Of a stretch of 64,000 nucleotides of DNA, positions 4,316-64,000 are shown piece by piece. How positions within the stretch are numbered: position 1 is the first letter of the stretch; each line of letters opens with the position of its first letter. The notes beneath the pieces were generated by a model, which saw only the letters and a list, made by a program, of their open reading frames with translations, did not search any database and was not told where the DNA came from. This DNA is from an uncultured Gelidibacter sp. (GTDB taxonomy: Bacteria > Bacteroidota > Bacteroidia > Flavobacteriales > Flavobacteriaceae), in assembly GCF_947500795.1 (NCBI RefSeq), contig NZ_CANMTE010000007.1, positions 12,456 to 76,455 of the forward strand, given 5' to 3'. A program made the position numbers and the translations under genes.

Positions 4316-5494
4316 TTATTCGTAAGTCAAATACGCTGATACCAACCAATGGTTCAGCTTATCACCATCCACTGGAGTTGCAGGGATTTTTATTTTGATC
4401 GTGTGTGCACCCGCTTTTAAGTCGCCTAAATCCACCACCATAGGTTCTACAGAGGAGCCTGGGCACCAATTAGATCTCGACAAATCTGAAGAGGCAATGC
4501 GTTCTTCAATTTCTTTAACTTCGTACTTTCTTGTTTCGGAACTGATATAGGACGCCGAATCTTTTTTAATCCATACGCCTGATGTTGGATTGAATCGACG
4601 GAAGGACGCACAATCATCACGCCAAGGAATGGTATCCAAAACCAATGTATTATTGAAAAAGACACTGTTTTTAATTTTGATGAATTCATCGCCACCACTA
4701 TGTCCGCCGTGTCCGGTGGTGATGTAGTGTAATTTCACATTTTTAGCATTCTTCTTTAGTTGAATGGTTTGCTCCAAATCTTTATGGGCAAAATTATCTG
4801 GAATTTTCTGCCCGCCAACGTACGGAATGGTGTTCACTACAGGCAATACTGAAACTTTCTTTTGTGTTCTATCGGAATACTTCAATTCCAGATCAAAATC
4901 ATAACCTTCCGCGGTCCAGGAATCGATCCAAACACCTACATAAAACGTCTCCGTCACCAAGCTTTCTAAAGCCGTGATATCATGCTCCCACACCACTTCT
5001 TTCTCCCAAGACGGAATATAAACTGGTCTTCTGTATTTAACTTTGTTATCACTGTAATGTCCAACGCCAAACGGAGTCATAAATCGCATCAGTTCCACTA
5101 CCGGTTCGTAGTTTTTTCCTTGTACCAATCCGGCGTATTTGCCATCTACATAGGAATCAGTCGGGAATTTTTCATCCTTTTCTGCAATATCCAGGATGGA
5201 AAGTTTTTCAGGATCGGAAACCACGAAGACAGACCCCGATTTATCCCAACGGTCGCCGCTAGAACGCACCGTTAATTTGATATTCACATCCGTGCCTTTA
5301 GCAAACGTGGGTACTGTTACTTTTTTATAAACTAAACGGCCGTCCATTAACCGAACCGCTTGAGCATCCGCACCTTTTTCACCTCCAAAATTGAGAGGTT
5401 GTTTGTCAAAAACCTTTACATTGACCGGTTTCTGTGCGTTTAATGAAAAGATTGTAAATACTAAAAATGTAAAAATTAATATGTTTGATTTCAT
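4316..5494 (-). CDS. Peptide-N-glycosidase F family amidase (PNGase F-like), signal peptide
   Basis: GDRWDK (W59-D60 equivalent), VELMRFMTPFG (E118), TTGHGGHSGGDEF (E206), PWRDDC and LSRSNWCPG. No N-terminal GLPGLI domain. Confidence 0.9.
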   Translation of the reverse strand: MKSNILIFTFLVFTIFSLNAQKPVNVKVFDKQPLNFGGEKGADAQAVRLMDGRLVYKKVTVPTFAKGTDVNIKLTVRSSGDRWDKSGSVFVVSDPEKLSILDIAEKDEKFPTDSYVDGKYAGLVQGKNYEPVVELMRFMTPFGVGHYSDNKVKYRRPVYIPSWEKEVVWEHDITALESLVTETFYVGVWIDSWTAEGYDFDLELKYSDRTQKKVSVLPVVNTIPYVGGQKIPDNFAHKDLEQTIQLKKNAKNVKLHYITTGHGGHSGGDEFIKIKNSVFFNNTLVLDTIPWRDDCASFRRFNPTSGVWIKKDSASYISSETRKYEVKEIEERIASSDLSRSNWCPGSSVEPMVVDLGDLKAGAHTIKIKIPATPVDGDKLNHWLVSAYLTYE

Positions 5495-15326: not shown

Positions 15327-16346
15327 TTAGTTATCCCAAGACATTTTAAAGGTCGCATCTTCCATTCGATTGCCATGTGCATCATCACAAACGGCATAAT
15401 TAAATCCGGAACGTAAGCTATACCCTGCATGTTCGCCATTTTTATTGATGGCGATAAAACCGACTTGCAGATACTCCATGTCTTTATGGTTTTTGTGCTT
15501 GTCGTAAATACGCTCCACAATTTCCTTACAAGCTTCAAATGGCGATTTACCTTGACGCATCAACTCCACCACCATGGCACTTCCGGCAGTTCTAATAACC
15601 GCTTCTCCCAAACCTGTGGCAGCTGCAGCACCAACTTCATTATCTAAAAATAAGCCTGCACCAATGATTGGCGAATCGCCTACACGACCGTGCATTTTCC
15701 AAGCCGCCCCACTAGTCGTACAGCCTCCAGAAATATTGCCTGCTTCATCAATAACCAACATTGAAATGGTATCGTGATTTTCCATATTGATGACCGGTTT
15801 GTATTTGGATTCTTCCATCCACTTTTTCCAATCCGCTTCTGCTTCTGCCGTTAAGAGGTTTTCTTCCTTAAAACCTTCTGCTAAGGCAAACTGAAGTGCA
15901 CCTTGACCTGACAGCATCACGTGTGGCGTATTTTGTAATACTTTTTTAGCCACAGAAATAGGGTGCTTAATGCCTTGCAAAAAGGACACCGAGCCACAGT
16001 CGCTATTATGATCCATGATACAGGCATCTAAAGTTACTTTGCCTTCTCGGTCAGGAAATCCGCCGTAGCCCACACTTCTGACTTCAGGATCCGCTTCAGG
16101 AATTTTCATTCCGGCTTCAATAGCATCTAAAGCTGATTTGCCGTTTTTTAACTGTTTCCAAGTTTCATCGTTGGCTGGTAAACCGTGGTTCCATGTGGAA
16201 ATCACCAAAGGCTTCACCGCTTTTTTATCAGGATTTACTGTGGGGATGACCGCAGTATTTGCAGCAGTACTACTACAGCTCAAGACCGAACTGATGCCGA
16301 TAGTTCCTAAGGCTGCTTTCTTTATAAAATCTCTTCTGTCTGACAT
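15327..16346 (-). CDS. aspG: N4-(beta-N-acetylglucosaminyl)-L-asparaginase (glycosylasparaginase, Ntn hydrolase)
   Basis: Tat motif SDRRDFIK; STWNHG, SVGYGGFPD, autoproteolysis site NHD|TISML, GRVGDSPIIGAG. Confidence 0.93.
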   Translation of the reverse strand: MSDRRDFIKKAALGTIGISSVLSCSSTAANTAVIPTVNPDKKAVKPLVISTWNHGLPANDETWKQLKNGKSALDAIEAGMKIPEADPEVRSVGYGGFPDREGKVTLDACIMDHNSDCGSVSFLQGIKHPISVAKKVLQNTPHVMLSGQGALQFALAEGFKEENLLTAEAEADWKKWMEESKYKPVINMENHDTISMLVIDEAGNISGGCTTSGAAWKMHGRVGDSPIIGAGLFLDNEVGAAAATGLGEAVIRTAGSAMVVELMRQGKSPFEACKEIVERIYDKHKNHKDMEYLQVGFIAINKNGEHAGYSLRSGFNYAVCDDAHGNRMEDATFKMSWDN

Positions 16347-39468: not shown

Positions 39469-40656
39469 TTATTTTGACAATCGGTAGACAATCACATCTC
39501 GAGATGGCACCTCAATAGATAATTTCGAACTTGTATTGCCCATCATTTTGTCTTCCCATAAATCTTTAATTTGGTATACGTTCTCTGCTGAAAAATCTTT
39601 GATGTTGATTTTTGTCCAATCCACTTCATAGGTTTTAGTAGCGATGTCTCGATTAAAGAAGCAAATGGCAATGTCGCCGTTAGAAAGCGGTTTTTGCCAA
39701 ATTTCAAAATTTCCAAGATCAACAATTTTAAACCCTTGTTTTCCCAACACATCCTGATTGACTTCTAATAATCCTTTATGGGTTAAAATATGCTGATCCG
39801 TAGCATTCATAGTGCGTAAATCGTTGCCTGCCATTAAAGGTGCTGCCAACATACACCACATGCTAAAATGTGCTCTTGCTTCGTTTTCAGGCATCCCATT
39901 GTTGCCCACAGCCAACATATCCGGATCATTCCAATGTCCCGGTCCCGCATATTTTTCTAAGCCAACTTGCATGTCAACCAAGTCAGACCATCCAATCAAA
40001 TTACCCCAAATATTGCCGTCATAGCGGCCATTCATATCAATATCTAAGGTCGTGCGCCATAAGTGACCCACGTCCTTACCCCATTCCCATGGTTTGTTTT
40101 CACCCCATTCGCACAGGCTAAAAACAATAGGTCGGCCTGCTTTATATAGCGCGTCTCTCATAAGTGTATAGGATGCTATGGCATCTTGGCCTTCCGTAAA
40201 GCACCAATCGTATTTTAAATAATCAACACCCCACTTGGCATAGGTTTCTGCATCTTGCATTTCAAACCCTTTACTTCCAGGACGCCCAGCACAAGTTTTT
40301 GTACCCGCATCAGAATAGATGCCGAATTTCAAGCCTTTAGAATGCACATAATCAGCCAAACTTTTAATCCCTGATGGAAATTTCTCCTTATCAACAATGA
40401 TATAGCCGTTATCATCACGACCTATCTGCCAACAATCGTCAATAACAATGTATTCATACCCAGCGCCCTTAAGCCCCTTTTCAACCATAGCATCAGCCAT
40501 CTCCTTAATGACGGTTTCATTGACACCCTCACATTCAAAACTGTTCCAACTATTCCAACCCATTGGTGGTGTTTGTGCTAAATTTTCGAATTTTTGTGCC
40601 GTACTTTTGGTGGCGAAACCAAAGGCTAAAACGATTAAAAGAAACTTGATTTTCAT
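39469..40656 (-). CDS. GH27 alpha-galactosidase / alpha-N-acetylgalactosaminidase
   Basis: TPPMGWNSWN, YIVIDDCW, YLKYDWC nucleophile, WRTTLDI acid/base, WNDPDML; signal peptide. Confidence 0.95.
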   Translation of the reverse strand: MKIKFLLIVLAFGFATKSTAQKFENLAQTPPMGWNSWNSFECEGVNETVIKEMADAMVEKGLKGAGYEYIVIDDCWQIGRDDNGYIIVDKEKFPSGIKSLADYVHSKGLKFGIYSDAGTKTCAGRPGSKGFEMQDAETYAKWGVDYLKYDWCFTEGQDAIASYTLMRDALYKAGRPIVFSLCEWGENKPWEWGKDVGHLWRTTLDIDMNGRYDGNIWGNLIGWSDLVDMQVGLEKYAGPGHWNDPDMLAVGNNGMPENEARAHFSMWCMLAAPLMAGNDLRTMNATDQHILTHKGLLEVNQDVLGKQGFKIVDLGNFEIWQKPLSNGDIAICFFNRDIATKTYEVDWTKINIKDFSAENVYQIKDLWEDKMMGNTSSKLSIEVPSRDVIVYRLSK

Positions 40657-40671
40657 GGTTATATATTTTTT

Positions 40672-42753
40672 TTAATTTGAAAATGTGGATGCTGGCAATC
40701 CGGCATCATTGACTAAATTTCCGTTGGAAAAGGAACTATACACATACCTTACAAAGCGAGGGGTTTCAATTTCCGGGGACCAAATTTGCAAGACGTCATT
40801 CACGATTTTACTGTGTGCAGGAACAAATGTCTTGTCCGGTCCCGCAATATAAATATCATTCACAGAAGCGTTTCCTGGTGTTTTCAAACCTTGTCCGTGT
40901 TTAAAATGGACTTCCAACCTATTCTTGTTGACGTTTACAAAGTCTAAAAGTGGTCCGGAGAAAGAATTCTCAACACCATAAGTTTTATGAAGTGCTATTT
41001 TAGAAAGTCGCTCGCCCACAACCCATTTCTGTTTTGGATGCACATCAGTTTCATGGCCCACATCCAAACTGACCGCCATACCTGTATTTGGAATTTCCAA
41101 TAATCGGCGTTGCGAATCCCTAAACTCTCCCCAATTTGGACGATTGATACTGCTCAACTGCACATAATAAAAAGGCAATTCTGGAGTCTTGAAATGGCTA
41201 CGCCAATCGTCCACCAACAGTTTAAATAGTTTCGAATGCAAGTTGACATGCTCGGTATTTGATTCGCCTTGGTACCAGATGACGCCTTTTATTTTGTAAT
41301 CTCTGATGGGCATCACGCCTCCATCAAAGAGCATTGTTGGATGATAGGGATGTCTTGCCCTAATCCCATTCTTAGAAAGGCCTTTCATATTTAAAGCCGC
41401 ACGCTCTGCCACCCAAGTATCAACTTTAGGATGCAAGTGGGTATCATTAAGCAAACTCACGGTCTCAGGATGCTGTTCCATCGACTCCCTGCTGATCCAA
41501 CTTTGAATGGGCGCTCCACCCACAGCATTGTTAATGATTCCAACAGGAACCCCTAATTGCTTTTGAAGTTTATAGGCGAAGGCATAGGCTACTGCGGAAA
41601 AATCGTTTAGGTTTTCGGTTGTCGATGGAATCCATCCAGAGTTTTTGAAATACGAGTTGGCATTACATTCTTTAAGTTCAGCTTCTGTGTATGGTTTGTT
41701 AGACAATACTTTTCCGTCCATTGAGAATAGAAACACTTGCGGATTAAGGGAATCTTTTAAAACGGTCGCCGCATGTTCCATCTCACGGACTTTAAAGTCC
41801 ATGTTAGACTGCCCTGAAGCCAACCAAACCTCACCTATATACACCGACTTTATTTCAATAGAATTTTCAGCCGTTGCAAACTTTAAGGCATAAGGACCGC
41901 CTGCTGGCATTGGAGGAAAAGTGACCTGCCATTTGCCATGCACATCAGCTTTTGCTGTTTTCGAAACGTTGTTAAATCGAACAGTAATAGTTTCATCAGC
42001 ATTAGCTGTACCATTAAAACTAATCGGTTCATTACGTTGCAATACCATATTCTCGCCGTAGAGCACAGGGAGTTTTAATCCGCCGTAATCCCCAGTAAGA
42101 GCAGCATACACTTTATCGGCGATAACTGTTGCACCTTCTTTGGTGGGATGTAAATTATCAGGAAAGTATTCAGGAAATCTATAAAGTGGCTCGTGCAAAT
42201 CGATGACTTGTACTGCTGCTTTCTCGGCAATGCCTTCTATTTTTACTTGGATTTCCTTAAAACTTTCGCGCATGCCTTCTTCAAACCAATGGTGTCCAGA
42301 AAACGTGGGCGTCATTTTGCAAATCATAACTTCAGGCTTTGATGGCAGATTTTTGTAGAGTGCAATCATTTCCAAATAATCCTGTTCAAATTCGGCGTGG
42401 TGGTCTGGCCAGTTATTATTGCCTTGATCGTTCAGGCCTAAATGAATGATGACAATGTTAGGCCCAAAATCTTGTGACGCTTTAAATTGGGACGTTTTCC
42501 AATAAGGTTTATGTCCGTTTTTAAGCATAGTCGCCCCGGAATATCCAAAGTTTCCCACCTCGTAATTTGCGCCTAAACGCTCTTGCAGTTGTTGCGGATA
42601 GGAATTTTCTTCACGATCCTCAATTCCTGCCCCGAAGGTCACACTATCCCCCACACAGGCAACTTTTATGGTTTGGGAATTTAATAGGAAAGAAGAACAC
42701 AACATTAAACTCAGTAAAATTATGCGGTAATTATTTGAAGACTTTTTCATCAT
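40672..42753 (-). CDS. Two-domain sialate O-acetylesterase (GDSL/SGNH + SASA)
   Basis: VACVGDSVT...HLGLND...DNLHP, then WLASGQSNM...WYQGESN...DVHP. Probable start 42753 or 42750 (ORF track 42792). Confidence 0.9.
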   Translation of the reverse strand: MMKKSSNNYRIILLSLMLCSSFLLNSQTIKVACVGDSVTFGAGIEDREENSYPQQLQERLGANYEVGNFGYSGATMLKNGHKPYWKTSQFKASQDFGPNIVIIHLGLNDQGNNNWPDHHAEFEQDYLEMIALYKNLPSKPEVMICKMTPTFSGHHWFEEGMRESFKEIQVKIEGIAEKAAVQVIDLHEPLYRFPEYFPDNLHPTKEGATVIADKVYAALTGDYGGLKLPVLYGENMVLQRNEPISFNGTANADETITVRFNNVSKTAKADVHGKWQVTFPPMPAGGPYALKFATAENSIEIKSVYIGEVWLASGQSNMDFKVREMEHAATVLKDSLNPQVFLFSMDGKVLSNKPYTEAELKECNANSYFKNSGWIPSTTENLNDFSAVAYAFAYKLQKQLGVPVGIINNAVGGAPIQSWISRESMEQHPETVSLLNDTHLHPKVDTWVAERAALNMKGLSKNGIRARHPYHPTMLFDGGVMPIRDYKIKGVIWYQGESNTEHVNLHSKLFKLLVDDWRSHFKTPELPFYYVQLSSINRPNWGEFRDSQRRLLEIPNTGMAVSLDVGHETDVHPKQKWVVGERLSKIALHKTYGVENSFSGPLLDFVNVNKNRLEVHFKHGQGLKTPGNASVNDIYIAGPDKTFVPAHSKIVNDVLQIWSPEIETPRFVRYVYSSFSNGNLVNDAGLPASTFSN

Positions 42754-42760
42754 AAATAAG

Positions 42761-43462
42761 TTATAGCGATCCAACAATCCAAAGTACAACATACGGCGAA
42801 ATAAGTGTGGTCAGAATTCCATTGACACACATGGCCAATCCACTATACGCGCCGGGTAAAGGTCCGATTTCAATAGCACGCGCAGTACCGATACCATGTG
42901 CTGCGGTCCCGAGCGCCGTTCCTACAGCGGTCTGGCTTTTGATGCCTATTAACCTCAAAAATCCCGATCCAAAGGCATTTCCAAAAACCCCTACCGCAAT
43001 CACAACACCTGCCGTTAAGGAAGGAATTCCTTCAGTGATTTTGGTGATTTCAATCGCTATTGGCGTGGTGACTGACATGGACACAAGTGACCTGATGAGC
43101 ACATCAGGAGCATGCATCGCAATAGAAATTAAGGATACCGAAGCAATACTGATGATACCGCCACAACCTACGGCCAATAAAAAAGGGTAAATGTTATGTT
43201 CGATCAGTTGGTATTTTTCATAAAAGAGAACACCAAGCGCTACAATGGCTGGTCCCAGAAAAAAACTCAAATATTGTCCGCCTTTATTATAATCCTCAAA
43301 AGGGATATCAAAAACTACCAAAAACAGAATAATGAGTGTAATGGCTACTAAAACAGGATTAAATAAAACGAATTTTATTTTGGACCGTAAAGCTCGCGCA
43401 GCAAAAAAAACCACGACGGTAAGAAGAATGCCAAAAACGGGAAGCTGATAGAAGTCAATCAT
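42761..43462 (-). CDS. lrgB: LrgB-family membrane protein
   Basis: FLGPAIVALG, SVTTPIAIEI, ALGTAAHGIGTARA; probable start MIDFY at 43462, overlapping the lrgA stop (ATGATTGA). Confidence 0.92.
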   Translation of the reverse strand: MIDFYQLPVFGILLTVVVFFAARALRSKIKFVLFNPVLVAITLIILFLVVFDIPFEDYNKGGQYLSFFLGPAIVALGVLFYEKYQLIEHNIYPFLLAVGCGGIISIASVSLISIAMHAPDVLIRSLVSMSVTTPIAIEITKITEGIPSLTAGVVIAVGVFGNAFGSGFLRLIGIKSQTAVGTALGTAAHGIGTARAIEIGPLPGAYSGLAMCVNGILTTLISPYVVLWIVGSL

Positions 43463-43793
43463 GTTTTTCCAGTTTTTGTTGTACGAACGCTGTAATGTAG
43501 AGGGTGAGTAGCGTCGTGACAACTGCAATAACAGATAGAATCATCCAGTAAGCACTTATAAAATCAAAGTACGACATGAGTCCAACGCCATAAGGCACAA
43601 AAAACAGTACCATGTACTTCAATAGTTGATCTGAAGCCGGTTTCACGTCTTTCAGCTGGATCAACTTTAATTTTAAAGCGCTGAAAATTAAAATCATCCC
43701 CAAGATATTCCCAGGAATTGGAACATCTGACACGTAGCGAATCAACTCTCCTATCCCGAGGAATAAAAAAATCCAGAGGAATGCTTTGAGCAT
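43455..43793 (-). CDS. lrgA: CidA/LrgA-family membrane protein
   Basis: VPIPGNILGMIL, LLKYMVLFFVPYGVGLM; probable start MLKAF at 43793. Confidence 0.92.
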   Translation of the reverse strand: MLKAFLWIFLFLGIGELIRYVSDVPIPGNILGMILIFSALKLKLIQLKDVKPASDQLLKYMVLFFVPYGVGLMSYFDFISAYWMILSVIAVVTTLLTLYITAFVQQKLEKHD

Positions 43794-43847
43794 TTGTAAT
43801 CGACTACGGAGTGGACTCATTAATTTTCAGCGCTATGAGAAAAAAGG

Positions 43848-44975
43848 TTATTTTTTCTTAGGTTTTTGATAGGTGTCTGCACCATCAGTCAACCAATTTA
43901 GTGAAAAACTCACAAATGGATTCTTAGTATAGTTATCTTGTTCAAAGAACAATCCGATATCACCATTATCAAGAATTGTCATCTCTGAATATGCAGAAGA
44001 CCCTTCATAAATAGTTTTTCCTTCTGACCAGGTTTTTCCTTCGTCATAACTGATACGCACGGTCATATTAACACGTCCTTTTTCAGATTTCGCATTTGAA
44101 AAAAGTAGTCTGTTCTTTTTGTAACCATCTTCAATTGACGTATAGCGAATGATGCTGGCATTACATCCTGGATCAATCAACTCTGGCGCAGGAACGGTAG
44201 TCCATGATTTTCCTTCATCTGTAGAGGTGTGCACGTAACGTAAGCCTTTGCCATTAACACGAGCGTTGATCATTAAGGTACCATCAGCAAGCTCAATCAC
44301 TTTGGATTCGTCAGCTGGTTGAATTGGCGTGTCTATAAAATACCAAGTTTTACCGTGGTCATCACTACCAAACAAGTGTAGGCCACTATTCAAATTCACC
44401 ATGGTATGCAATAATTTGCCTGAGCGGGTTTGGATACCTCTTCCTGAAGTGATGAATTTAAAATCTTTGTGCCATTCTGATTTCGCGATTTGTGAGGTAA
44501 TATCTACCGGTTTACTCCAGGTTTTACCGTTATCAGAACTCTTCACATAATGTAGGTAATAGATATCTTTTTCAGTATCCAAATTCATATAATTATAGAA
44601 CATGAAAATCTCATTGGTTACGTGATCTACAATAAATGAAGGATCAGAAGCTGATTCACCATAAGGGAAATCGACTGCCGTTTCAATATCTGACCATGTT
44701 TTCCCATTATCAGCGCTTCGTCTGACAATAATATTAATGTCCTTACTGAATTTCAAATCGCCACAGCCAGGCACACGTTCATCAATTGCCGCAATCACAT
44801 CGCCATTTGGGGCGGTAATAATGGCTGGAATACGGTAACACTCTACACCTTCAGTCATTGAAGTGTTGAACAAATCTTGAAATACGGGCGCACCATCATT
44901 TGTGCTCGTGTTTTGGGTTTTTACACCGCAATTAAAAAGGAATACTGGAATCAGTAATGCAATTAGTTTTCTCAT
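43848..44975 (-). CDS. nanH: GH33 exo-alpha-sialidase, catalytic-domain-only lipoprotein
   Basis: Lipobox LFNC; YRIP; five Asp-boxes (SADNGKTW, SSDNGKTW, SDDHGKTW, STDEGKSW, SYDEGKTW); catalytic residues in ADESK, NAR, KGR and SAYS. Confidence 0.93.
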   Translation of the reverse strand: MRKLIALLIPVFLFNCGVKTQNTSTNDGAPVFQDLFNTSMTEGVECYRIPAIITAPNGDVIAAIDERVPGCGDLKFSKDINIIVRRSADNGKTWSDIETAVDFPYGESASDPSFIVDHVTNEIFMFYNYMNLDTEKDIYYLHYVKSSDNGKTWSKPVDITSQIAKSEWHKDFKFITSGRGIQTRSGKLLHTMVNLNSGLHLFGSDDHGKTWYFIDTPIQPADESKVIELADGTLMINARVNGKGLRYVHTSTDEGKSWTTVPAPELIDPGCNASIIRYTSIEDGYKKNRLLFSNAKSEKGRVNMTVRISYDEGKTWSEGKTIYEGSSAYSEMTILDNGDIGLFFEQDNYTKNPFVSFSLNWLTDGADTYQKPKKK

Positions 44976-45188: not shown

Positions 45189-45962
45189 TTATTCGTACAT
45201 ATTATGCACATTCGCGTGATGTAATTCTTCAAAAAAATCAGCGATGTTGCTTACTACAGCGTCTAAAAATGCTTTGCCTTTTTCTGCAGTCGCTTTTATC
45301 GGATTACCCACACCGGTATCTTCAGTTACCTGTGTCCATTGACGTTGCGAGCTCACCCAACCTTCTCTAAGGCCTTTAATTTTAAATTGTTTGGCACTTC
45401 CACTTCCTGCTTGCTCAAGTGGTAATACCAAATTTGGCACAATATGCATCACTGCAGAAGTCTCCAACTCGCCGGCATGATCTCCAGGTTCATCAAAATA
45501 GTCTTTAGCATTGGCTGCCTGAAACCAGTTTAGGGCACAGACAAACACGTTTGGAAATTCTATGCTCAGTTCGCGAATCATCTGCTTAAAATTATTGCCG
45601 CCGTGTGCATTGACGATCACTAATTTTTGAATGTTTTGACCATCCAACACCTCAACCACATCTCTCAAAACAGCATATTGTGTGCTTGGATTCATATTGA
45701 TACATAACGAAATGTCCATCTGACCTGTATTCACTCCAAAAGGAATGGTTGGCAACACCACCACCTTCGCACCCTTATTCCAGGCTTGTTCCGCAGCAGC
45801 GATAGCCACATATTCTGCTTGAATATTATCAGTGGCATACGGCAGGTGGTAATTATGGGCTTCCGTAGCGCCCCATGGCAAAATAGCTACCGTATAATTG
45901 GTGTCTTTAACTGACTTCCAATTGGTTTCTGCCAACACATAAGGTCGTATAGCGTTCGTCAT
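45189..45962 (-). CDS. Creatininase-family metallo-amidohydrolase
   Basis: LPWGATEAHNYHLPYATD (E-x-H...D), NAHGGN, DHAGELETS; metal ligands intact; no signal peptide. Confidence 0.9.
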   Translation of the reverse strand: MTNAIRPYVLAETNWKSVKDTNYTVAILPWGATEAHNYHLPYATDNIQAEYVAIAAAEQAWNKGAKVVVLPTIPFGVNTGQMDISLCINMNPSTQYAVLRDVVEVLDGQNIQKLVIVNAHGGNNFKQMIRELSIEFPNVFVCALNWFQAANAKDYFDEPGDHAGELETSAVMHIVPNLVLPLEQAGSGSAKQFKIKGLREGWVSSQRQWTQVTEDTGVGNPIKATAEKGKAFLDAVVSNIADFFEELHHANVHNMYE

Positions 45963-45966
45963 CGTA

Positions 45967-47127
45967 TTATTTCTTTTGTTCTATTTTTTCGAACGATTTC
46001 CAACATTGGTACATCGCTCTTGGCACATGGAAACATCCTTTCCATTTGCCACCTTTTAAATCTAATAACACCTCGCCTTGGCGGTTCAAATAACCATACC
46101 ATTCGCCATTTTCAGGATCTGAGAAATGAGACCACGCATACTCGTGAACCTTTTCATACCAATCCATCAATTCTTTTCTCCCTGTGTGTTCATACGCTTT
46201 AGATAATGCGACCAAAGCTTCTAAGTGTACCCACCATAGTTTTTGATCCCACTCCAACTGTTGTGGCGGTTTGTTCATGACGTCCATAAAGTATAGGATT
46301 CCGCCATACTTTTTATCCCATCCGTAGTCCAAAATTCTTAGGATGGTATCCGCAGCTTTATTGATCAATTCCTTATCATTTCTTCTCACCCCAATATCAA
46401 TCATAAACCACATGGCTTCAATACCGTGACCCGGATTTATAAGTCGGCCGTTATAACTATCCTCATGCGTGCCATCAGGACGGACAAATTCGTACACAAG
46501 TCCGGATTCTTTATCTAAAAACACATTCATGACTTCATTGATACTGAAATCGATGGTTTTGTTCACTTCCTCTTCATCCAAAACCCCTTCCAATTCCAAC
46601 ACTAAGTTGGACAAAATCATTGGCAAGGAAAAACTTTTCAACGGGCGCTCACTGGTCGTTTTCTCGTAACTCCCTTTTGGATTGTCTTTCTTTTTAAGAA
46701 TATTCAAATAGGTTTGCTTGGCGAGTTGTTTAATTTCTTCATCACCAGATGCCATAGCGTATTGACTAAAAGCCATCGCTGCAAAACAATCTGAAAAAAT
46801 ATTATACGGCTGTACTAACGGATTTCCTTCTTTGGTTGTCGAGAAATAGAAATTGCCATCTTTATCCATACCGTGTTTAATGATAAAGTCAATACCATGT
46901 TTGGCTAACTTCAACCAGTTTTCATTTTTTTCGACAGTATTGTAAAGCATAGAAAAGGTCCACGCTTGACGACCTTGAAGCCACATAAATTTATCCGTAT
47001 CATAAACTTTACCTGTTTTATCCAAACATGTAAAATAACCACCATGCTCTGTATCAATCGAGTGTTGTTCCCAAAAAGGGATGACATCATTCAACAAAGT
47101 GTTTTTATAAAGTGTTGTATAGTTCAT
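45967..47127 (-). CDS. nanE: N-acylglucosamine 2-epimerase (AGE family)
   Basis: [51 protein letters not shown]. Confidence 0.93.
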
Positions 47128-47259: not shown

Positions 47260-47979
47260 ATGAAAAATCGCATTGCCATAAAGCCCTTAACTAATTTAAG
47301 CCTAGTAGATAAGGTAGAAATAAGTATTACAGAATATATTAAAAATAATAAGCTTCAGGTTGGTGATGCGATCCCAAAAGAAACGGAGTTTGCTGAGACT
47401 TTGGGGGTGAGTAGAACGGTGATTAGAGAAGCCCTTACCCGATTGCGCACGATTGGCATTATCGATTCAAAAAAACATAAAGGCATGGTTTTAAGCCAGC
47501 CGGACTTTATTTTGAATTTTGAGAAAGTGATGAGCCTTAACTTAATGGGCGATGAAGCTTTAAAGGATATTTTTGAAATGCGTTTGATTCTAGAAATGGG
47601 GATGGTCGATTTAGTGTTCGCCAGAAAAACAGCCGAAGACTTGGAAGAGTTGACCAAAATAGTAGATAGAATGGAGAAAAAGTCTCCCCATTCGAGTGTT
47701 TTTAGTTTGAAAAATGAGGTGGCATTTCACGGAAAACTTTACGAAATGTCAGGCAACAGAACTTTGCAACGCGTACAAAATATTTTGTTACCGGTGTTTC
47801 AATACGTGCATGACCACAAATTATCAGATGCCAAAACCTATAAGTATTCCAAGAAATTCGTCACGCATCGCGATCTTTTAAATTACCTAAAGGATGACGA
47901 CATTAAAAAATTCAGAAAAGGATTGGCGCAGCATTTAGAACCTCATTTTGAGAGAGTCCTTATGAATTCTGAATTTTAA
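47260..47979 (+). CDS. FadR/GntR-family transcriptional regulator (NanR-like)
   Basis: wHTH motif GDAIPKETEFAETLGVSRTVIREAL; C-terminal FCD domain (EVAFHGKLY); embedded in the nan cluster. Confidence 0.93.
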   Translation: MKNRIAIKPLTNLSLVDKVEISITEYIKNNKLQVGDAIPKETEFAETLGVSRTVIREALTRLRTIGIIDSKKHKGMVLSQPDFILNFEKVMSLNLMGDEALKDIFEMRLILEMGMVDLVFARKTAEDLEELTKIVDRMEKKSPHSSVFSLKNEVAFHGKLYEMSGNRTLQRVQNILLPVFQYVHDHKLSDAKTYKYSKKFVTHRDLLNYLKDDDIKKFRKGLAQHLEPHFERVLMNSEF

Positions 47980-48418
47980 CTTTAACCACTACTTTTTTCA
48001 CGTTTGATGGAGCTCCAGTAGTCACTTCGGGCATGTGGATATCGTCTGGAAAGAAGATGGCATACATTCCTGCTTTAACCGTGATAATGTCATAAGGCTC
48101 CTCAAATAGCATGTAATCATCTTCTGGATCATAGGCTTTTTTAGGGTCTTGTCCTGATTTCATAGTGACGCCCATATGCTCAACACCTTCAATTACATAT
48201 TGTACATCAATATATTTGATGTGAGACTCCATAAGTTGATCTTCAATTGGCTTTGTTGGGTATTCCTTTAAAATAGCAAAGACAGCATCGCCATCAATCT
48301 CATGTTTGCCTACTGGCAAGGCATCAAAATTGGTGTTTTTAATATACGCTAACGCCTTATCAATCCCTTTGTGAAGGCCTTTGTATAGGCCTATGTTTTC
48401 AATTTTATCTACAATCAT
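47960..48418 (-). CDS. nanQ: YhcH/YjgK/YiaL-family protein (NanQ-like)
   Basis: ESHIKYIDVQY, IFFPDDIHMP, VKKVVVKV; adjacent to nanA. Family is clear; orthology to NanQ is inferred from context. Confidence 0.85.
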   Translation of the reverse strand: MIVDKIENIGLYKGLHKGIDKALAYIKNTNFDALPVGKHEIDGDAVFAILKEYPTKPIEDQLMESHIKYIDVQYVIEGVEHMGVTMKSGQDPKKAYDPEDDYMLFEEPYDIITVKAGMYAIFFPDDIHMPEVTTGAPSNVKKVVVKVKIQNS

Positions 48419-48498: not shown

Positions 48499-49404
48499 TT
48501 AATTACTTAAATGTTCTAATAATCCGATACGCTCCAATTCTGCCCTGATTTCAACATAAACATCATCAGAAAGCGTGGCATGTGGAAATCTGCTTGGTCC
48601 ACAATCGATGCCCAAAGTCTTCATAAAGCCTTTAGCAACGCCGTTAAATCCACCGTAACCATCTAATATTTCAACAAATCGTATTGCTTTTGTTTGCAAT
48701 GCAGCTGCTTCAGCCATTTTGCCTTCTTCAAACAAAGATTTTATTTTATAATATGCCGGTGCTAAATGGTTATAAGTACTTCCTACCCATCCATCAGCTC
48801 CTAATGGTAAACTTGAAAGAAAGATCTCATCAAATCCGAAAAGGATGTTGTATTTACCGCCTTCAAAATTCTTGCAATGCAAATAATCGATCAGGTTGTT
48901 ATTGGTAAACTTGATGCCTTCTAAATTCGGGATTTCTTTAGAGGCCACTTTTAAGAACTCAGCCATGTTTAAATTGGCGCCACTCAACACTGGAATGTGG
49001 TAATAGTAAAACGGTAAATTAGGCGCACAAGCGGCAACTTCTTTACAATAGTGCACCAACTTATCAATACTATTTAATTTAAAATAGTAAGGCGCTAATA
49101 CAGCAATGGCGTCTACTTTATCTGCAGCAAATGTCGCTAAGTCTTTTGCCACCTTCAAACTTGGATCTCCAACGTGGTCAATCAAATATAAATCTGACGA
49201 TTTATGTTTAGCCCAAGCACTGGTTATTTCCTTGCGCTCTTCAGTAGATAAGGACACGAAGTCTCCTGTGGAGCCATTCATAAAAATTCCGGCTACTTTA
49301 TTTTTAACCAAAAATTCTCCATAGGCCTTAATAACACTGGTATTTAATGAACCATCTTGGTGCATTGGCGCATAGGTAGCTGCTATTAAATTATTTATTT
49401 TCAT
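48499..49404 (-). CDS. nanA: N-acetylneuraminate lyase (DHDPS family)
   Basis: NGSTGDF, YYYHIP, Schiff-base GIKFT, FGFDE, GWVGSTYN; nan context. Confidence 0.92.
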   Translation of the reverse strand: MKINNLIAATYAPMHQDGSLNTSVIKAYGEFLVKNKVAGIFMNGSTGDFVSLSTEERKEITSAWAKHKSSDLYLIDHVGDPSLKVAKDLATFAADKVDAIAVLAPYYFKLNSIDKLVHYCKEVAACAPNLPFYYYHIPVLSGANLNMAEFLKVASKEIPNLEGIKFTNNNLIDYLHCKNFEGGKYNILFGFDEIFLSSLPLGADGWVGSTYNHLAPAYYKIKSLFEEGKMAEAAALQTKAIRFVEILDGYGGFNGVAKGFMKTLGIDCGPSRFPHATLSDDVYVEIRAELERIGLLEHLSN

Positions 49405-49499: not shown

Positions 49500-51008
49500 T
49501 TAATTGGTATAACCTGCTGTTTGCGTCAATAATGGATTTCTACCAATCATATCTTCTGTGATAGGCAATTCCAATTTGTACTCATCACCAGGGTTAAGGA
49601 AATCGATGTTATTGATAACATAACTGTTTCCTGCACGTCTTAAATCCCACCATCTTTTACCTTCACCAATAAACTCTTTGTAACGCTCATCTAAAATAGC
49701 ATTCGTATTTTCTGCTTGAGAACCGTTAACATAGCCATGGATTAAAGGATTGTAATTAGATCCGTAAGCTCTTGCACGGATTTGGTTGATTTCTTCAGAT
49801 GGATCTTCACCTAACAAGTTTTTCACTTCGGCCAACATTAATACCACGTCAGCATATCTGTATAAAGGCACGTCGTTTTCGAAAATACGCTCTGAACCAA
49901 TAACTTTTCCTAAGAACTTATTGAAAATAGCTCCAAAATATTTAGACTCTGTATACGTTGGATATCCTAATCCAGCATTATCATCTTTATATAATCTGAT
50001 AAAAGTCGCATCTTTTCTTTGGTCTTTATTATCATCCAATAGCATAAGCACTTCTTCTGAAGGACCATATCTATTTGCACCTGCAATAACAAAAGCACCC
50101 ATGGACTCTCCCTGATCATTAAATTGAGGGTTAATCTCCGTAGATCTACCTGTTAAACTGTTGTAGAAGTTTTCAGCCTCATCTTGCTTATATTGAAAAG
50201 CAAAAATAAACTCATTATTTCCTTCATTGTCAACACCCCAAAGGCTGTTAACATTTGGCGCCAAGCTAACTCCTAAAGAAGAAATTTGTTGTAACGCAGT
50301 CTTAGCTTCAGTAAAATCTGCACTTCCGCCACCTAGTAAATTTCCAGACCAGATATAAGCATCACCTTTAAGTGCTAGTGTAGCCGCTTTAGACCAAAAC
50401 ACTCTGCTTCCTTCCCAATAGCTATTATCAGATCCAAAAGCGTTTAAAGACGCTGCAATATCCGATTTTATCAACGCCATAACCTCTGTTTTAGGAGATC
50501 TTGCTCTACTTAATCCTTCTGGATTAACTTCAGCCAAAGGCTCTAAAATAATTGGCACATCACCCCAAGTTTTCAATAACGTGTAGTAGTATAACGCTCT
50601 CAAACCATAAGCCTGACCCATTAAATGGTTTTTCTCTGCTGGATTAACAAACGTTACGTTTGGTGCATTCTTGATAAAATCATTAACTCTATGGATTCTA
50701 GTATACAATCCTGCCCAACCTCCAAATGGCGCTGTAGCAACTGTAATATTAGATTCGATTAAATTCTCACTGAAAGGTGATTCGAAGGTTCTTCCACCCC
50801 AAATATCACTTCTCATTTCTCCTAACTGCCAGAATGTTCCTGCTGTTCCTCTTAGATTGGCAAACATACCAGTATGGGCAGTTTTTACACCTTCTTCAGT
50901 ATCCCAAAAACCTTGGGCTGTCAATTCGCTAGGACTTGTCAATTCTAGCTCGTTTTCACAAGCACTGAAAGTGACCAGAGCTATAAATATATAAATGTAC
51001 TTTTTCAT
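49500..51008 (-). CDS. susD: SusD-family lipoprotein (NanU-like by context)
   Basis: Lipobox FSAC; GEMRSDIW, GQAYGLRALYY, YRYADVVLMLAE, ERYKEFIGEGKRWWDLRR. Confidence 0.95.
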   Translation of the reverse strand: MKKYIYIFIALVTFSACENELELTSPSELTAQGFWDTEEGVKTAHTGMFANLRGTAGTFWQLGEMRSDIWGGRTFESPFSENLIESNITVATAPFGGWAGLYTRIHRVNDFIKNAPNVTFVNPAEKNHLMGQAYGLRALYYYTLLKTWGDVPIILEPLAEVNPEGLSRARSPKTEVMALIKSDIAASLNAFGSDNSYWEGSRVFWSKAATLALKGDAYIWSGNLLGGGSADFTEAKTALQQISSLGVSLAPNVNSLWGVDNEGNNEFIFAFQYKQDEAENFYNSLTGRSTEINPQFNDQGESMGAFVIAGANRYGPSEEVLMLLDDNKDQRKDATFIRLYKDDNAGLGYPTYTESKYFGAIFNKFLGKVIGSERIFENDVPLYRYADVVLMLAEVKNLLGEDPSEEINQIRARAYGSNYNPLIHGYVNGSQAENTNAILDERYKEFIGEGKRWWDLRRAGNSYVINNIDFLNPGDEYKLELPITEDMIGRNPLLTQTAGYTN

Positions 51009-51018
51009 CTTCTAAAAT

Positions 51019-54000
51019 TTAAAATGTTACGTTAAGACCTAATGTAATCGTTTTTGGCACTGGGAATGACCCATATTGAACCCCACCTTCTTCTGGTGTA
51101 TCTCCACTCAGACTCTTAAAGTAATGCAAGTTTGATCCTGTTACGTAGATGCTTAATCTTTGGATAGCATCGTTAAAATATTTACTTGGCATGTTATAAC
51201 TCAAGGTTACTTCACGTAATGCTAAATAATCTCCTTTTTCCCAGAATTTCTCGTTACCATAGTGCTGTAAGTCTGTTGCACCTTCTCCACCTCTCCAAAC
51301 GTTTTTGGATCCGTTAACGAAAACGAAACGTGGCCAATCTGTATCAGTATTGTTTGGTGTCCAAGAATCAGCTACTTCAATTGGCTGTGCTAAGTTACCT
51401 TGCGTTTGACCATAACCTTTGTTTCTAATGTGGTTCCACACTAAATGTCCGGTTGCAAAATCAGTCTTCACAAATAAGTTGAAGTTTTTATAGGTCATAC
51501 TTGTTGTTAAACCTCCAATGAAATCAGGAGTTGTACGTCCGATAACTTTTCTGTCTAAATGATTAATAACACCATCACCATTTTGATCTACCCACTTAAC
51601 ATCTCCAGCCCAACGTTTGTTACGGCTAGCACCTGGCATGTAATTGTCAGTAATTGCATTGTCAGCATCAGCTTCAGCTTGCGTTTTATAGATACCTGCT
51701 TGCTCAAAAGCAACCACTAAGTCATGACCTGAACGTTGGCCTTCTTGATAACCACCAACCCATTCTTCTTGTCCAGTTGATGCATTCCAAATCAATGTAC
51801 CACCTTGTCTGTTTAAGTCGTTATCATTTTCAGGAAGTTTAACAACGTAGTTTTTGTTTGTTGTAAACGTCGCACCCATGTTCCATGTAAAATCTTCGTT
51901 TCTAACAATATCACCATTAACTTGCAATTCAAAACCTTTGTTTCTGATGGTTCCGTTGTTAGTTAAGATACCGCTAAACCCAGTGTAGTATGGTAATGTT
52001 AAGTATGCTAATTTGTCTTTAATGTCTCTTGAATATACATCTGTAATAATAGACACTCTGTTATCAAAGAAAGAGATATCTAAACCAGCATTAAACGTTG
52101 TTGATTTTTCCCATAATAGGTCTTGTGTTGGTAATGAAGAATTGGCATATCCGGTTTGACCGTTGTAAACACCTTGTCCTCCATAAGATCCAAATACACC
52201 GTAATTACTTAAGACGTCTTGGTTACCGTTAACACCATAACTTAATCTTGGCTTGATTCTAGAAACTACATTCTTAAGTGAAGATTCTTGGAAGAATGTT
52301 TCATTATGTACATTCCATCCGAAAGATACACCAGGGAAGAAATCGAATTTATTGTTACCTAATCTTGAAGAACCATCATATCTATAGGTAAAGCTGAATA
52401 AGTAACGATCATCAAAATCATATAACAATCTACCAAAAGTAGACGTGATTACATATTCCGTTTCAAAACTGTAAGGAATTCCATCAGCTTCAGCTCCAGC
52501 ATTTAGAGTTTCAATTAAATCTGTTGGAGAATTTCTTGTTCCTGCAGAGGTTCCGAAATAATTATCTTTATAGTACTCCGCACCAATTAATGCGTTGAAA
52601 CTGTGCTCACCAACTTTCTTAGTATAGTTTAAAGTTCCTGTCAATTGGTTTCTTAATGTTCTACCTAAACTCACTGCTGCTTCACGTCCTGTACGTAATG
52701 GACCTGAGTTACTACCAGTTCTATATGCTCTGTTAAAGCTTGAGTTATGATTATTAACTGTAAAATGACTTCCTGTTAAAGAAAATTTCAAGTCATTAAG
52801 AATGTCCCAATCGATACCTACAGAAGCAGACAAACGTTGCTCTAAATTTTTTCTGACAAATTTATCTTGATAGTATAATGGGTTACCGAAACCTTCGTTT
52901 TGGCCTGGAGCATATTGATCTGACCATGTACCGTCTGCATTACTATCAAAGGTTCTAGAAGTTGGCGCTTGACCTTGGAATCTTCTAAACACTGTATCAT
53001 CTCCACCTAATGGGCTTCTTGTGAAGTTAGAGTGCGAGTAAAGTACGTTTGAGTTTACTTTAAATTTATCGCTAATTTTATAAGATCCGCTGAATTTACC
53101 CGAGTATCTTAAAAATCCTGACCCTAAAACTAAACCATCATTATCTAATGCACCTAAACCTAAATAGTAAGTCCCTTTCTCGTTACCACCGTCAAAAGAT
53201 AAATAGTGATCTTTAGATGCGCTAGTTTGATAAATACGATCTCCTACTTCTGGGTTGTCATAAAATAAGATTTCTTTGGTTGGATCTAAAATATCTGGAA
53301 TCGTTTTCCATCCTGGTGTATTCAACAAGTAGCTATTTGATGCCGATAAAAATTGCGTTGTAAACGGATCATTTGTCGCATTGTTACCAGTACCTGCTCC
53401 ATTATTCCCATCTAAGAAAGCACCGAAAGCACCCGCGTTACCAGCAACTTGTCTGTTCCAAGCAATAGACTGTCTGTTATAGTCAATATGTTGCGCCGCG
53501 TTAAGATACTTCTGATCGTTTCTTTCGTGGTTCATACTATACTTATACTTGTAGTTGATAGAAGATTTCCCAACTTTACCAGTTTTAGTAGTTACTAAGA
53601 TGACACCATCCGCAGATCTTGCACCATAAATAGCGGTTGCAGCTGCATCTTTAAGAACCTCAATAGACTCAATATCGTCTGAGTTTAAAGCGAAAAATGA
53701 CCCTGGAATACCATCAATTAAGATAAGCGGAGACCCTGTACCATTAAAACCAGTACCACCACGTAAAACAATTTGCGGCGTTGCACCTGGCTGACCAGTT
53801 GTGTTGGTTACTCTTAAACCAGCAATTGTTCCTTGTAACGCTGTAGCAACGTTAGATCTGGTTGACGTTTCTAACACTTGCGTATCTAATTTAGATACTG
53901 AAGTAGTTAGTTTAGCTCTACTTTGTTGGCCGTACCCTGTAATTACAATTTCGTCCAACATTGCTGCATCTTCTTTTAAAGACACATTGATTACTGCCTG

Positions 54001-54273
54001 GTTACCGACAGTCGCTTCCTTTGCTTGAAACCCAACAAAACTAAATACAAGAACATCTCCCGTATTTGCTTTAATGCTGTAGTTTCCGTCAAAATCTGTA
54101 ATTGCTCCGCTGGTTGTTCCTTTCACAATAATAGTGGCACCCGTTAACGGAATGTTATCCGTAGACGAAACTACCGTCCCTGTGATTATCTTTTCCTGAC
54201 CAAAAACCATGGCCGGAAGAGCGAAAAGCAAAATAAATATCATATAAATGATATTGGATTCTCTTTTTTTCAT
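51019..54273 (-). CDS. susC: SusC TonB-dependent transporter (NanO-like by context)
   Basis: TDFDGNYSI, LDEIVITGYG, LKDAAATAIYGARSADGVILVTTK; C-terminal Phe. Confidence 0.97.
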   Translation of the reverse strand: MKKRESNIIYMIFILLFALPAMVFGQEKIITGTVVSSTDNIPLTGATIIVKGTTSGAITDFDGNYSIKANTGDVLVFSFVGFQAKEATVGNQAVINVSLKEDAAMLDEIVITGYGQQSRAKLTTSVSKLDTQVLETSTRSNVATALQGTIAGLRVTNTTGQPGATPQIVLRGGTGFNGTGSPLILIDGIPGSFFALNSDDIESIEVLKDAAATAIYGARSADGVILVTTKTGKVGKSSINYKYKYSMNHERNDQKYLNAAQHIDYNRQSIAWNRQVAGNAGAFGAFLDGNNGAGTGNNATNDPFTTQFLSASNSYLLNTPGWKTIPDILDPTKEILFYDNPEVGDRIYQTSASKDHYLSFDGGNEKGTYYLGLGALDNDGLVLGSGFLRYSGKFSGSYKISDKFKVNSNVLYSHSNFTRSPLGGDDTVFRRFQGQAPTSRTFDSNADGTWSDQYAPGQNEGFGNPLYYQDKFVRKNLEQRLSASVGIDWDILNDLKFSLTGSHFTVNNHNSSFNRAYRTGSNSGPLRTGREAAVSLGRTLRNQLTGTLNYTKKVGEHSFNALIGAEYYKDNYFGTSAGTRNSPTDLIETLNAGAEADGIPYSFETEYVITSTFGRLLYDFDDRYLFSFTYRYDGSSRLGNNKFDFFPGVSFGWNVHNETFFQESSLKNVVSRIKPRLSYGVNGNQDVLSNYGVFGSYGGQGVYNGQTGYANSSLPTQDLLWEKSTTFNAGLDISFFDNRVSIITDVYSRDIKDKLAYLTLPYYTGFSGILTNNGTIRNKGFELQVNGDIVRNEDFTWNMGATFTTNKNYVVKLPENDNDLNRQGGTLIWNASTGQEEWVGGYQEGQRSGHDLVVAFEQAGIYKTQAEADADNAITDNYMPGASRNKRWAGDVKWVDQNGDGVINHLDRKVIGRTTPDFIGGLTTSMTYKNFNLFVKTDFATGHLVWNHIRNKGYGQTQGNLAQPIEVADSWTPNNTDTDWPRFVFVNGSKNVWRGGEGATDLQHYGNEKFWEKGDYLALREVTLSYNMPSKYFNDAIQRLSIYVTGSNLHYFKSLSGDTPEEGGVQYGSFPVPKTITLGLNVTF

Positions 54274-63336: not shown

Positions 63337-64000
63337 TTAAAATTTTCGATCTGGATGGAACATCTTTACATCAAGACTCAATGTTTTATCAGAAATCATT
63401 TCAGTTACCAGTTTACCTGTTCCCGTAGCCATACTCCAACCCATCATGGCATGGCCTGCCGCAACAATTAAATTAGAGCATTTTGCAGACTTCCCTATGT
63501 ACGGCAACCCATCCGGAGACACCGGACGCAAACCTGATGCCGCACCGTCTTTTTCATCTTCAGTTAACGCGATATCGGGATAGTATTTTGAAACGGCATT
63601 GGCGATGGCATCCACACGCGTTTTATTGATGTTATCATTAATACCTGCAATTTCCATTGTACCACCAAAACGCGTAAATCCGTTCATCGGCGTCACCGCC
63701 ACCTTCGATTCTGTTAAAATAGCAGGCAACTTAATTCCTGTAGGACGTGAGGTGTTAATTCTATAACCTTTTCCCGCCTGCAACAATAAGTTAATCCCTA
63801 ACTTTTTACTTAAGAATGCACTCCATGACCCAGCCGCCAAGACAAATTCATCTGCAGTAAACCTATGTGATTTGGTGATAAGCGCTACTATTTTCTGATT
63901 GCTGACTTCTAAATCCTCAACTTTTTCATTCGCATAAAACACGACCCCTTTCAATTTTAAATAGGCTTTCATTTCGGTCATAAACTCATTGGGAGTGGTA
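63337..64000 (-). CDS. DadA-like FAD-dependent oxidoreductase, C-terminal part (gene starts beyond the right edge)
   Basis: VLAAGSWS, QAGKGY, RFGGTME, GLRPVSPDGLPYIG, GHAMMGWSMATGTG; the frame stays open to base 64000. Confidence 0.9.
   Translation of the reverse strand, partial: TTPNEFMTEMKAYLKLKGVVFYANEKVEDLEVSNQKIVALITKSHRFTADEFVLAAGSWSAFLSKKLGINLLLQAGKGYRINTSRPTGIKLPAILTESKVAVTPMNGFTRFGGTMEIAGINDNINKTRVDAIANAVSKYYPDIALTEDEKDGAASGLRPVSPDGLPYIGKSAKCSNLIVAAGHAMMGWSMATGTGKLVTEMISDKTLSLDVKMFHPDRKF

Follow-up and report, generated by a model that had tools for sequence, protein, structure and literature searches.

A creatininase-fold amidohydrolase gene associated with sialic-acid and amino-sugar genes in Gelidibacter and related Flavobacteriaceae

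Sialic-acid foraging shapes the ecology of gut, oral and marine Bacteroidota. The canonical Bacteroidetes route runs from NanA through NanE-II, RokA and NagA to NagB, with deacylation of the NagA or PIG-L type falling after NanA and the epimerase, an N-acylglucosamine 2-epimerase of the AGE type (PMC10017367). The creatininase family PF02633 includes, besides the creatininase of Pseudomonas putida (PDB 1J2T/1V7Z/3A6x), the proteins MftE, ArfB and IolN, and judging by the NCBIfam names its fold hydrolyses peptide amides, formamides and even a diketone C–C bond. Here we describe a creatininase-family gene of an uncultured Gelidibacter sp. (Flavobacteriaceae), located on contig NZ_CANMTE010000007.1 in a 64-kb stretch of DNA that we analysed as a whole and refer to as the window. 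By position and by its distribution among genomes, the gene is associated with sialic-acid (nan) and amino-sugar genes. Its product may be an accessory cytoplasmic amidohydrolase of sialic-acid or amino-sugar catabolism, most plausibly an N-deacylase acting on sialic acid or a hexosamine derived from it; we give this reading a probability of about 0.4.

The 257-residue protein matches PF02633 over practically the whole profile (E = 6.1e-58; 196.5 bits against a gathering cut-off of 31.3; profile positions 1–237 of 238). Its metal ligands (E34, H36, D45, H120 and E167) and catalytic histidine (H162) are invariant among 18 orthologs and, in the profile alignment of these orthologs, correspond one-to-one to E34, H36, D45, H120, E183 and H178 of the P. 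putida creatininase. The N-terminus, read directly, carries no hydrophobic signal sequence. Judged from its sequence and its homologs, the gene is real and its catalytic residues are complete, and the product is predicted to be soluble and cytoplasmic. An initial annotation of the window had described it in these terms, as an intact creatininase-family open reading frame (ORF) with all metal-ligand motifs, encoding a cytoplasmic protein and starting 4 bp downstream of nanE. All of this was borne out, the neighbour being the AGE-type NanE-II and not the N-acetylmannosamine-6-phosphate epimerase of the E. coli type.

By homology, the fold is that of creatininase with a two-metal centre, as set by the crystal structure PDB 3LUB, a 12-chain structural genomics entry from Bacteroides fragilis named 'putative creatinine amidohydrolase'. 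The two proteins are equal in length and in metal ligands and share about 55% identity over 239 residues (E = 1.5e-66), and the profile built from the 18 orthologs matches 3LUB at E = 9e-79. These comparisons place the Gelidibacter protein in the uncharacterised 3LUB subfamily, whose orthologs span 53–95% identity. Orthologs of 72–95% identity occur in many Flavobacteriaceae, the nearest public homologs being Gelidibacter proteins (84–95%), and public annotations label the homologs 'creatinine amidohydrolase'.

The protein failed the models of the named creatininase-fold families: TIGR04448 (creatininase, EC 3.5.2.10) gave 70.3 bits against a cut-off of 235, TIGR03964 (MftE) 76.6 against 172, NF033501 (ArfB) 27.7 against 180 and NF041098 (IolN) 31 against 245. 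No radical-SAM or mftA-like gene was present among the annotated ORFs of the window, and no mycofactocin, riboflavin/F420 or inositol genes were found near the creatininase homolog. The P. putida creatininase shares the fold and matches the five ligands and the catalytic histidine exactly; its overall match is weak (profile E of about 6e-8) and restricted to residues 22–176. Tyr121 and Glu122 of the P. putida enzyme, which together with Trp174 we take to be substrate-side residues, are replaced by G121 and G122 in the Gelidibacter protein, and Trp174 has no counterpart. Unlike a true creatininase gene, the Gelidibacter gene has no creatine pathway around it. The absence of nagA, creatinase and sarcosine genes from the window, as stated in the initial annotation, holds for all annotated ORFs of at least 100–150 residues; creatinase and sarcosine oxidase genes were looked for within the window only. 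The one item loosely related to these genes, a truncated FAD oxidoreductase of the DAO family, lies about 17 kb away at the far edge of the window (63337–63999).

The stop codon of the AGE gene ends at position 45967 and the ATG of the creatininase homolog lies at 45962. Gene spacing indicates that the two are most likely co-transcribed, within a polysaccharide utilization locus (PUL) for sialylated glycans. No terminator was predicted in the 213-bp gap between the creatininase homolog and the sialidase gene. The scan for promoters and terminators returned counts no different from those of shuffled sequence, having used a sigma-70 consensus that is unfit for Bacteroidota promoters. In order, the PUL comprises SusC, SusD, a NanA-like lyase and YhcH/DUF386; a divergent GntR/FCD regulator, which is kept in related nan PULs; AGE, the creatininase homolog, a sialidase of glycoside hydrolase family 33 (GH33), LrgA and LrgB; and a GDSL+SASA protein, GH27 and a GH20+SASA fusion (Table 1).

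Table 1. Coordinates of the creatininase homolog, the surrounding PUL genes and a related Bacteroides operon.
Feature	Position	Strand	Evidence and remarks
Creatininase-family (3LUB-subfamily) metal amidohydrolase gene	45189..45962	(-)	257 aa, ATG start
AGE-type N-acylglucosamine 2-epimerase (NanE-II)	45967..47127	(-)	NF052547 659.5 bits > 600; PF07221 E=2e-77
GH33-type sialidase, BNR repeats	43848..44975	(-)	PF13088 E=8e-30; 213 bp downstream of creatininase homolog
LrgA-family membrane protein	43455..43820	(-)	PF03788 E=1e-28
LrgB-family membrane protein	42761..43528	(-)	PF04172 E=4e-70
YhcH/DUF386, N-acetylneuraminate anomerase-like	47960..48418	(-)	PF04074 E=1.5e-45; NF040884 111.7 bits < 160
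N-acetylneuraminate lyase, NanA-like, DHDPS family	48499..49404	(-)	PF00701 E=4e-45; top NCBIfam matches are NanA models, below cut-off
GntR/FCD regulator	47260..47979	(+)	PF00392 and PF07729; divergent from the AGE-creatininase unit
SusD	49500-51008	(-)	Sequence features; clusters with SusD of related nan PULs
SusC	51019-54273	(-)	Sequence features; clusters with SusC of related nan PULs
GDSL+SASA sialate O-acetylesterase	40672-42792	(-)	Pfam
GH27	39469-40656	(-)	Pfam
GH20+SASA fusion, 1170 aa	35979-39491	(-)	Pfam; GH20 hexosaminidase N-terminal, SASA at about residues 789-1007
MFS-DUF386/YhcH-creatininase operon	L170/L171 8270-10759; L172 6264-8759		Gut Bacteroides metagenome contigs

The gene contexts were compared across 201 Flavobacteriaceae genomes, one per genus. 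At an identity threshold of 53%, 45 of them carry an ortholog, and the surrounding DNA (about 20 kb) was examined for 40 of these loci, with the ORFs of the related loci called mechanically and all of them clustered. Orthologs of at least 60% identity form a single clade with 98% support, in which the creatininase homolog lies within a nan PUL in 8 of the 13 sampled genera. Such an embedded position was found at no fewer than 12 loci and in at least five gene orders: after AGE, after SusD, between the sialidase and GH20–SASA genes, after an esterase, and after a GntR regulator beside NanM–SSS. The intergenic gaps to sialidase, GH20–SASA or AGE genes in the related genera are often only 1–21 bp, and a scan of named genomes added PUL-type loci from Gelidibacter mesophilus, three Arenibacter and one Cellulophaga. 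The linkage to the nan PUL is kept through rearrangement, which argues for function. Members of the clade of 53–58% identity often show translational coupling between the gene and one for a fatty-acid-hydroxylase-family membrane protein, with gaps of −8 to +9 bp, the pair lying in a conserved housekeeping synteny block (valS/psd). This coupled protein (loci L038–L040, L065–L067 and others) has 423 residues, and its top NCBIfam match, far below the cut-off, is OlsE-like.

The association was also seen at the level of whole genomes, using Fisher tests on the same 201 genomes that ignore kinship among them. An ortholog is present in 16 of the 21 genomes with both NanA and AGE, compared with 29 of the 180 others (odds ratio (OR) 16.7, p = 3e-8). 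The initial annotation had tied its proposal to an enrichment of homologs in nan loci, and such an enrichment exists in Flavobacteriaceae, both in these counts and in the loci embedded in PULs. Copies outside a PUL are likewise enriched in nan-positive genomes (8/37 versus 5/156, p = 6e-4). A fusion of the glucosamine-6-phosphate deaminase NagB with a PIG-L domain, described below, occurs in all 45 carriers and in 64 of the 156 non-carriers (p = 6.5e-15). The nan association persists within the genomes that have this fusion (OR 6.5, p = 4e-4) and among genomes of at least 3 Mb (p = 0.003).

Beyond this family, the proposed tie to nan loci held for some Bacteroidales and not for most other lineages, so that the subfamily as a whole is not nan-specific. 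The Bacteroidales loci were found by way of 3LUB. In two gut Bacteroides lineages, the genes for an MFS transporter (anion:cation symporter, D-galactonate/ACS type), for DUF386/YhcH and for the creatininase homolog follow one another in a tight operon; YhcH has been shown experimentally to be an anomerase of N-acetylneuraminic acid (Neu5Ac) (PMC8141875). One of these operons (L170) belongs to a SusC/D PUL that also encodes two proteins without any family match, one of them with a type IX secretion system tail. The proteins flanking the Bacteroides triad, of 402 and 554 residues, had no match in Pfam, NCBIfam or PDB, and the 402-residue protein looks secreted, not metabolic. In a 5.3-Mb Bacteroidales genome (L173), the order is SASA esterase, GH20, GH2, GH20, creatininase homolog, NanM–GH92 and GH92. 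An APH-type kinase and nucleotidyltransferase pair adjoins the homolog in some metagenome-assembled genomes (MAGs) of Cytophagales and in one Cellulophaga; the same pair is found in the NagB–PIG-L operon of the Gelidibacter genome, which points again to amino sugars. So does the context in two genomes where sulfatases resembling N-sulphoglucosamine sulphohydrolase precede the gene. By the operon criterion of the analysis, about half of the orthologs outside Flavobacteriaceae are monocistronic, and none of the Pfam families among the 59 partners tallied there recurred in more than two predicted operons. Nan genes were absent at thirteen further Bacteroidia loci. A 286-residue metagenome protein, P0132, joins a Creatininase domain 100% identical to 3LUB to a GFO_IDH_MocA N-terminal domain; its contig is 2.5 kb long, and the two domains may be truly adjacent, fused, or brought together by an error of assembly.

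The Gelidibacter genome, which is 99.97% complete, contains neither nagA (the best TIGR00221 match scored 31 bits) nor a ROK kinase (RokA), and the steps downstream of NanE-II are therefore non-canonical in this genome. Its sole NagB is a 642-residue fusion of the deaminase (Glucosamine_iso) with a PIG-L domain, an LmbE-type de-N-acetylase. The fusion gene lies outside the window (contig C4:60416-62344), and its operon (C4:60416-66774) also encodes an MFS transporter, a Gfo/Idh/MocA oxidoreductase, an APH-type (AmgK/NahK-like) kinase and a nucleotidyltransferase. We found no paper on this NagB–PIG-L fusion. Among the 201 genomes, 109 have the fusion and 18 have nagA; 57 have the fusion and neither nagA nor the creatininase homolog, and three nan-positive genomes (G031, G077 and G113) also lack both. 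This distribution makes the PIG-L domain the parsimonious core deacetylase, and it is probably the usual deacetylase of N-acetylglucosamine (GlcNAc) or its 6-phosphate in this family. The creatininase homolog is at most accessory, and the core deacetylation of GlcNAc or GlcNAc-6-P is not its role.

LrgA/LrgB homologs have been shown to be pyruvate transporters in Firmicutes (PMC5626966, PMC6790026, PMC12632267). NanA releases pyruvate, and by analogy the LrgAB pair in the nan PUL may simply handle this product. The order creatininase homolog, LrgA, LrgB also occurs without nan genes at eight loci of the clade of at least 60% identity (Zunongwangia, Salegentibacter and MAGs), with gaps of −17 to +15 bp; a role in pyruvate transport leaves this tight coupling outside nan loci unexplained. 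We rejected LrgAB as a candidate for a missing sialic-acid importer, given an ortholog (65–70% identity) of the NanM–SSS transporter on contig C3. This NanM(Kelch)–SSS fusion (C3:536067-538676) stands beside a GH29 and two GH20 genes and is a member of the nan PUL in other genera.

In the mechanism that we propose, the creatininase homolog would cleave an amide, most likely the N-acyl group, on sialic acid or on a hexosamine derived from it. Besides a free amino sugar, which would feed the NagB–PIG-L route, the reaction would release a small carboxylic acid such as acetate or glycolate, and the adjacent LrgA/LrgB-type carboxylate transporter may move that acid. The action on a sugar amide, the identity of the sugar and the link to LrgAB are what we infer from the associations above. 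A narrower and much more speculative form, with a small chance of being right, would make the 3LUB subfamily an unrecognised creatininase-fold sugar N-deacylase for N-acyl groups that PIG-L or NagA handle poorly. An example would be the N-glycolyl (2-hydroxyacetyl) group of N-glycolylmannosamine or N-glycolylglucosamine derived from N-glycolylneuraminic acid (Neu5Gc), with LrgA/LrgB exporting the short hydroxy- or keto-acid released. If so, the coupling to a fatty-acid-hydroxylase-family protein elsewhere would reflect a shared preference for alpha-hydroxyacyl amides.

Several observations weigh against a role in sialic-acid catabolism. Most Flavobacteriaceae carriers (29 of 45) lack NanA and AGE, the co-occurrence tests leave kinship out of account, and the enrichment of copies outside PULs drops to p = 0.06 when conditioned on the NagB–PIG-L fusion. 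The PIG-L domain explains the missing nagA at least as well, and the three nan-positive genomes named above manage without the homolog. The copies embedded in PULs are confined to the single well-supported clade and may stem from few recruitment events. The subfamily is highly conserved: orthologs of 55–65% identity extend to other Bacteroidota, Planctomycetota, Gemmatimonadota, Ignavibacteria, Calditrichia, KSB1, Balneolales and Rhodothermales; outside the one Flavobacteriaceae clade, homologs are mostly monocistronic or have unrelated neighbours, and in B. fragilis-type genomes the gene follows a TonB-dependent receptor. No link of the creatininase family with sialic acid, PULs, Bacteroides or GlcNAc deacetylation was found in the literature. 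Much of this would suit a general or housekeeping amidohydrolase that acts outside sialic-acid metabolism, for instance on a damaged metabolite or on an amide that is cyclic or derived from lipid or peptide. Its place in the PUL would then be an accident of history, the PUL having grown in one lineage around the enzyme gene and LrgAB as a pre-existing module. Conservation across phyla in varied contexts, the scarcity of nan genes among carriers, the persistence of the creatininase–LrgA–LrgB order without them and the translational coupling in the 53–58% clade all speak for this explanation. A BlaI/BlaR1-like synteny common to the right flank of the window and non-nan loci points the same way, although its 26–44% identity does not suffice to settle whether the creatininase gene came first and the PUL formed around it. 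What makes us regard this explanation as possible but doubtful is that the gene changes position in the nan PUL from genus to genus and yet stays linked to it, that Bacteroidales show independent links to YhcH, NanM and SASA, that the co-occurrence with nan genes is found across genomes, and that the carriers are a strict subset of the genomes with NagB–PIG-L.

An N-deacylase role after the lyase also has to be set against an action before it, on the sialic acid taken up or on some other acidic amino sugar, by which an unusual N-acyl or amidino group would be removed or exchanged, or a lactone or lactam opened, for YhcH and NanA. The MFS–DUF386–creatininase operons without NanA or AGE nearby, the YhcH gene of the window PUL, the NanM domain gene adjoining the homolog in L173 and the ring-opening of a cyclic amide by the parent enzyme creatininase would all agree with such a step. 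We nevertheless consider it unlikely: the presence of NagB–PIG-L in every carrier fits a hexosamine product better, DUF386 is not always specific for sialic acid and both copies score below the anomerase cut-off, and the two triads may represent one evolutionary event. To our knowledge, no such sialic-acid-modifying reaction occurs in catabolism, which also counts against it. The initial annotation had proposed an N-deacylase that bypasses or supplements NagA, with substrates such as ManNGc/GlcNGc that are conjectural. The association with nan and amino-sugar genes supports this in part; a role as a stand-in for NagA is not supported, since the NagB–PIG-L fusion already provides a bypass. A full replacement of NagA as the main GlcNAc-6-P or GlcNAc deacetylase, close to that proposal, could be read from the lack of nagA and ROK kinase in a nearly complete genome and from the 10 of 16 nan-positive carriers without nagA. 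We hold it to be very improbable in view of the wide occurrence of the PIG-L fusion, here and in genomes with neither nagA nor the homolog, and of the nan-positive genomes that hold neither. Replacement would also predict mutual exclusion with nagA, and this is contradicted by the data: six nan-positive carriers also have nagA, and overall the two genes co-occur positively (11 of the 18 nagA-positive genomes carry the homolog; OR 6.9). A genuine creatinine amidohydrolase, finally, has the family name, the conserved metal site and the public annotations in its favour; the failed TIGR04448 model, the altered or missing substrate-side residues and the lack of creatinase and sarcosine oxidase genes in the window render it scarcely credible. 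An accessory amidohydrolase of sialic-acid or amino-sugar catabolism is the reading we prefer.

The window contains a second PUL, of the N-glycan type, at positions 1–35766, with GH2 beta-galactosidases, four GH92, two GH29 fucosidases, GH20, GH18 and GH130. This PUL also encodes a PNGase F (4316–5494), a glycosylasparaginase (15327–16346), SSS and MFS transporters, a LytTR two-component pair and SusC/D. The two PULs together are an apparatus of more than 50 kb for sialylated glycoprotein glycans in a marine flavobacterium.

NagA is missing from the Gelidibacter genome and from most of the sampled Flavobacteriaceae, and RokA is missing too in Gelidibacter, which leaves the route beyond the epimerase to be explained in these organisms. 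A conserved enzyme with a solved structure and with ties to nan and amino-sugar genes could offer a way to learn how Neu5Gc and other N-acyl variants of sialic acid are processed. Even if the enzyme proved to have no such role, the label 'creatinine amidohydrolase' would stand as a widespread mis-annotation, to be cleared from thousands of genomes. Should the N-glycolyl deacylase reading be true, the sialic-acid pathway of Bacteroidota would gain a new enzyme and perhaps a new role for a transporter.

Compared with the described systems, family, fold and structure are already known, and any novelty would lie in the reaction and in where it falls along the pathway. The 3LUB-type gene of B. fragilis lies between a TonB-dependent receptor and a cNMP-binding (cyclic nucleotide monophosphate) regulator with no nan locus, unlike the Gelidibacter gene. 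The reaction type proposed here, a metal-dependent removal of the N-acyl group from an amino sugar, is that of NagA, of the amidohydrolase superfamily, and of PIG-L/LmbE, whose folds are both unrelated to that of creatininase. The creatininase homolog would thus be a third, additional type of deacylase beside NagA and PIG-L, and not the sole one of the pathway.

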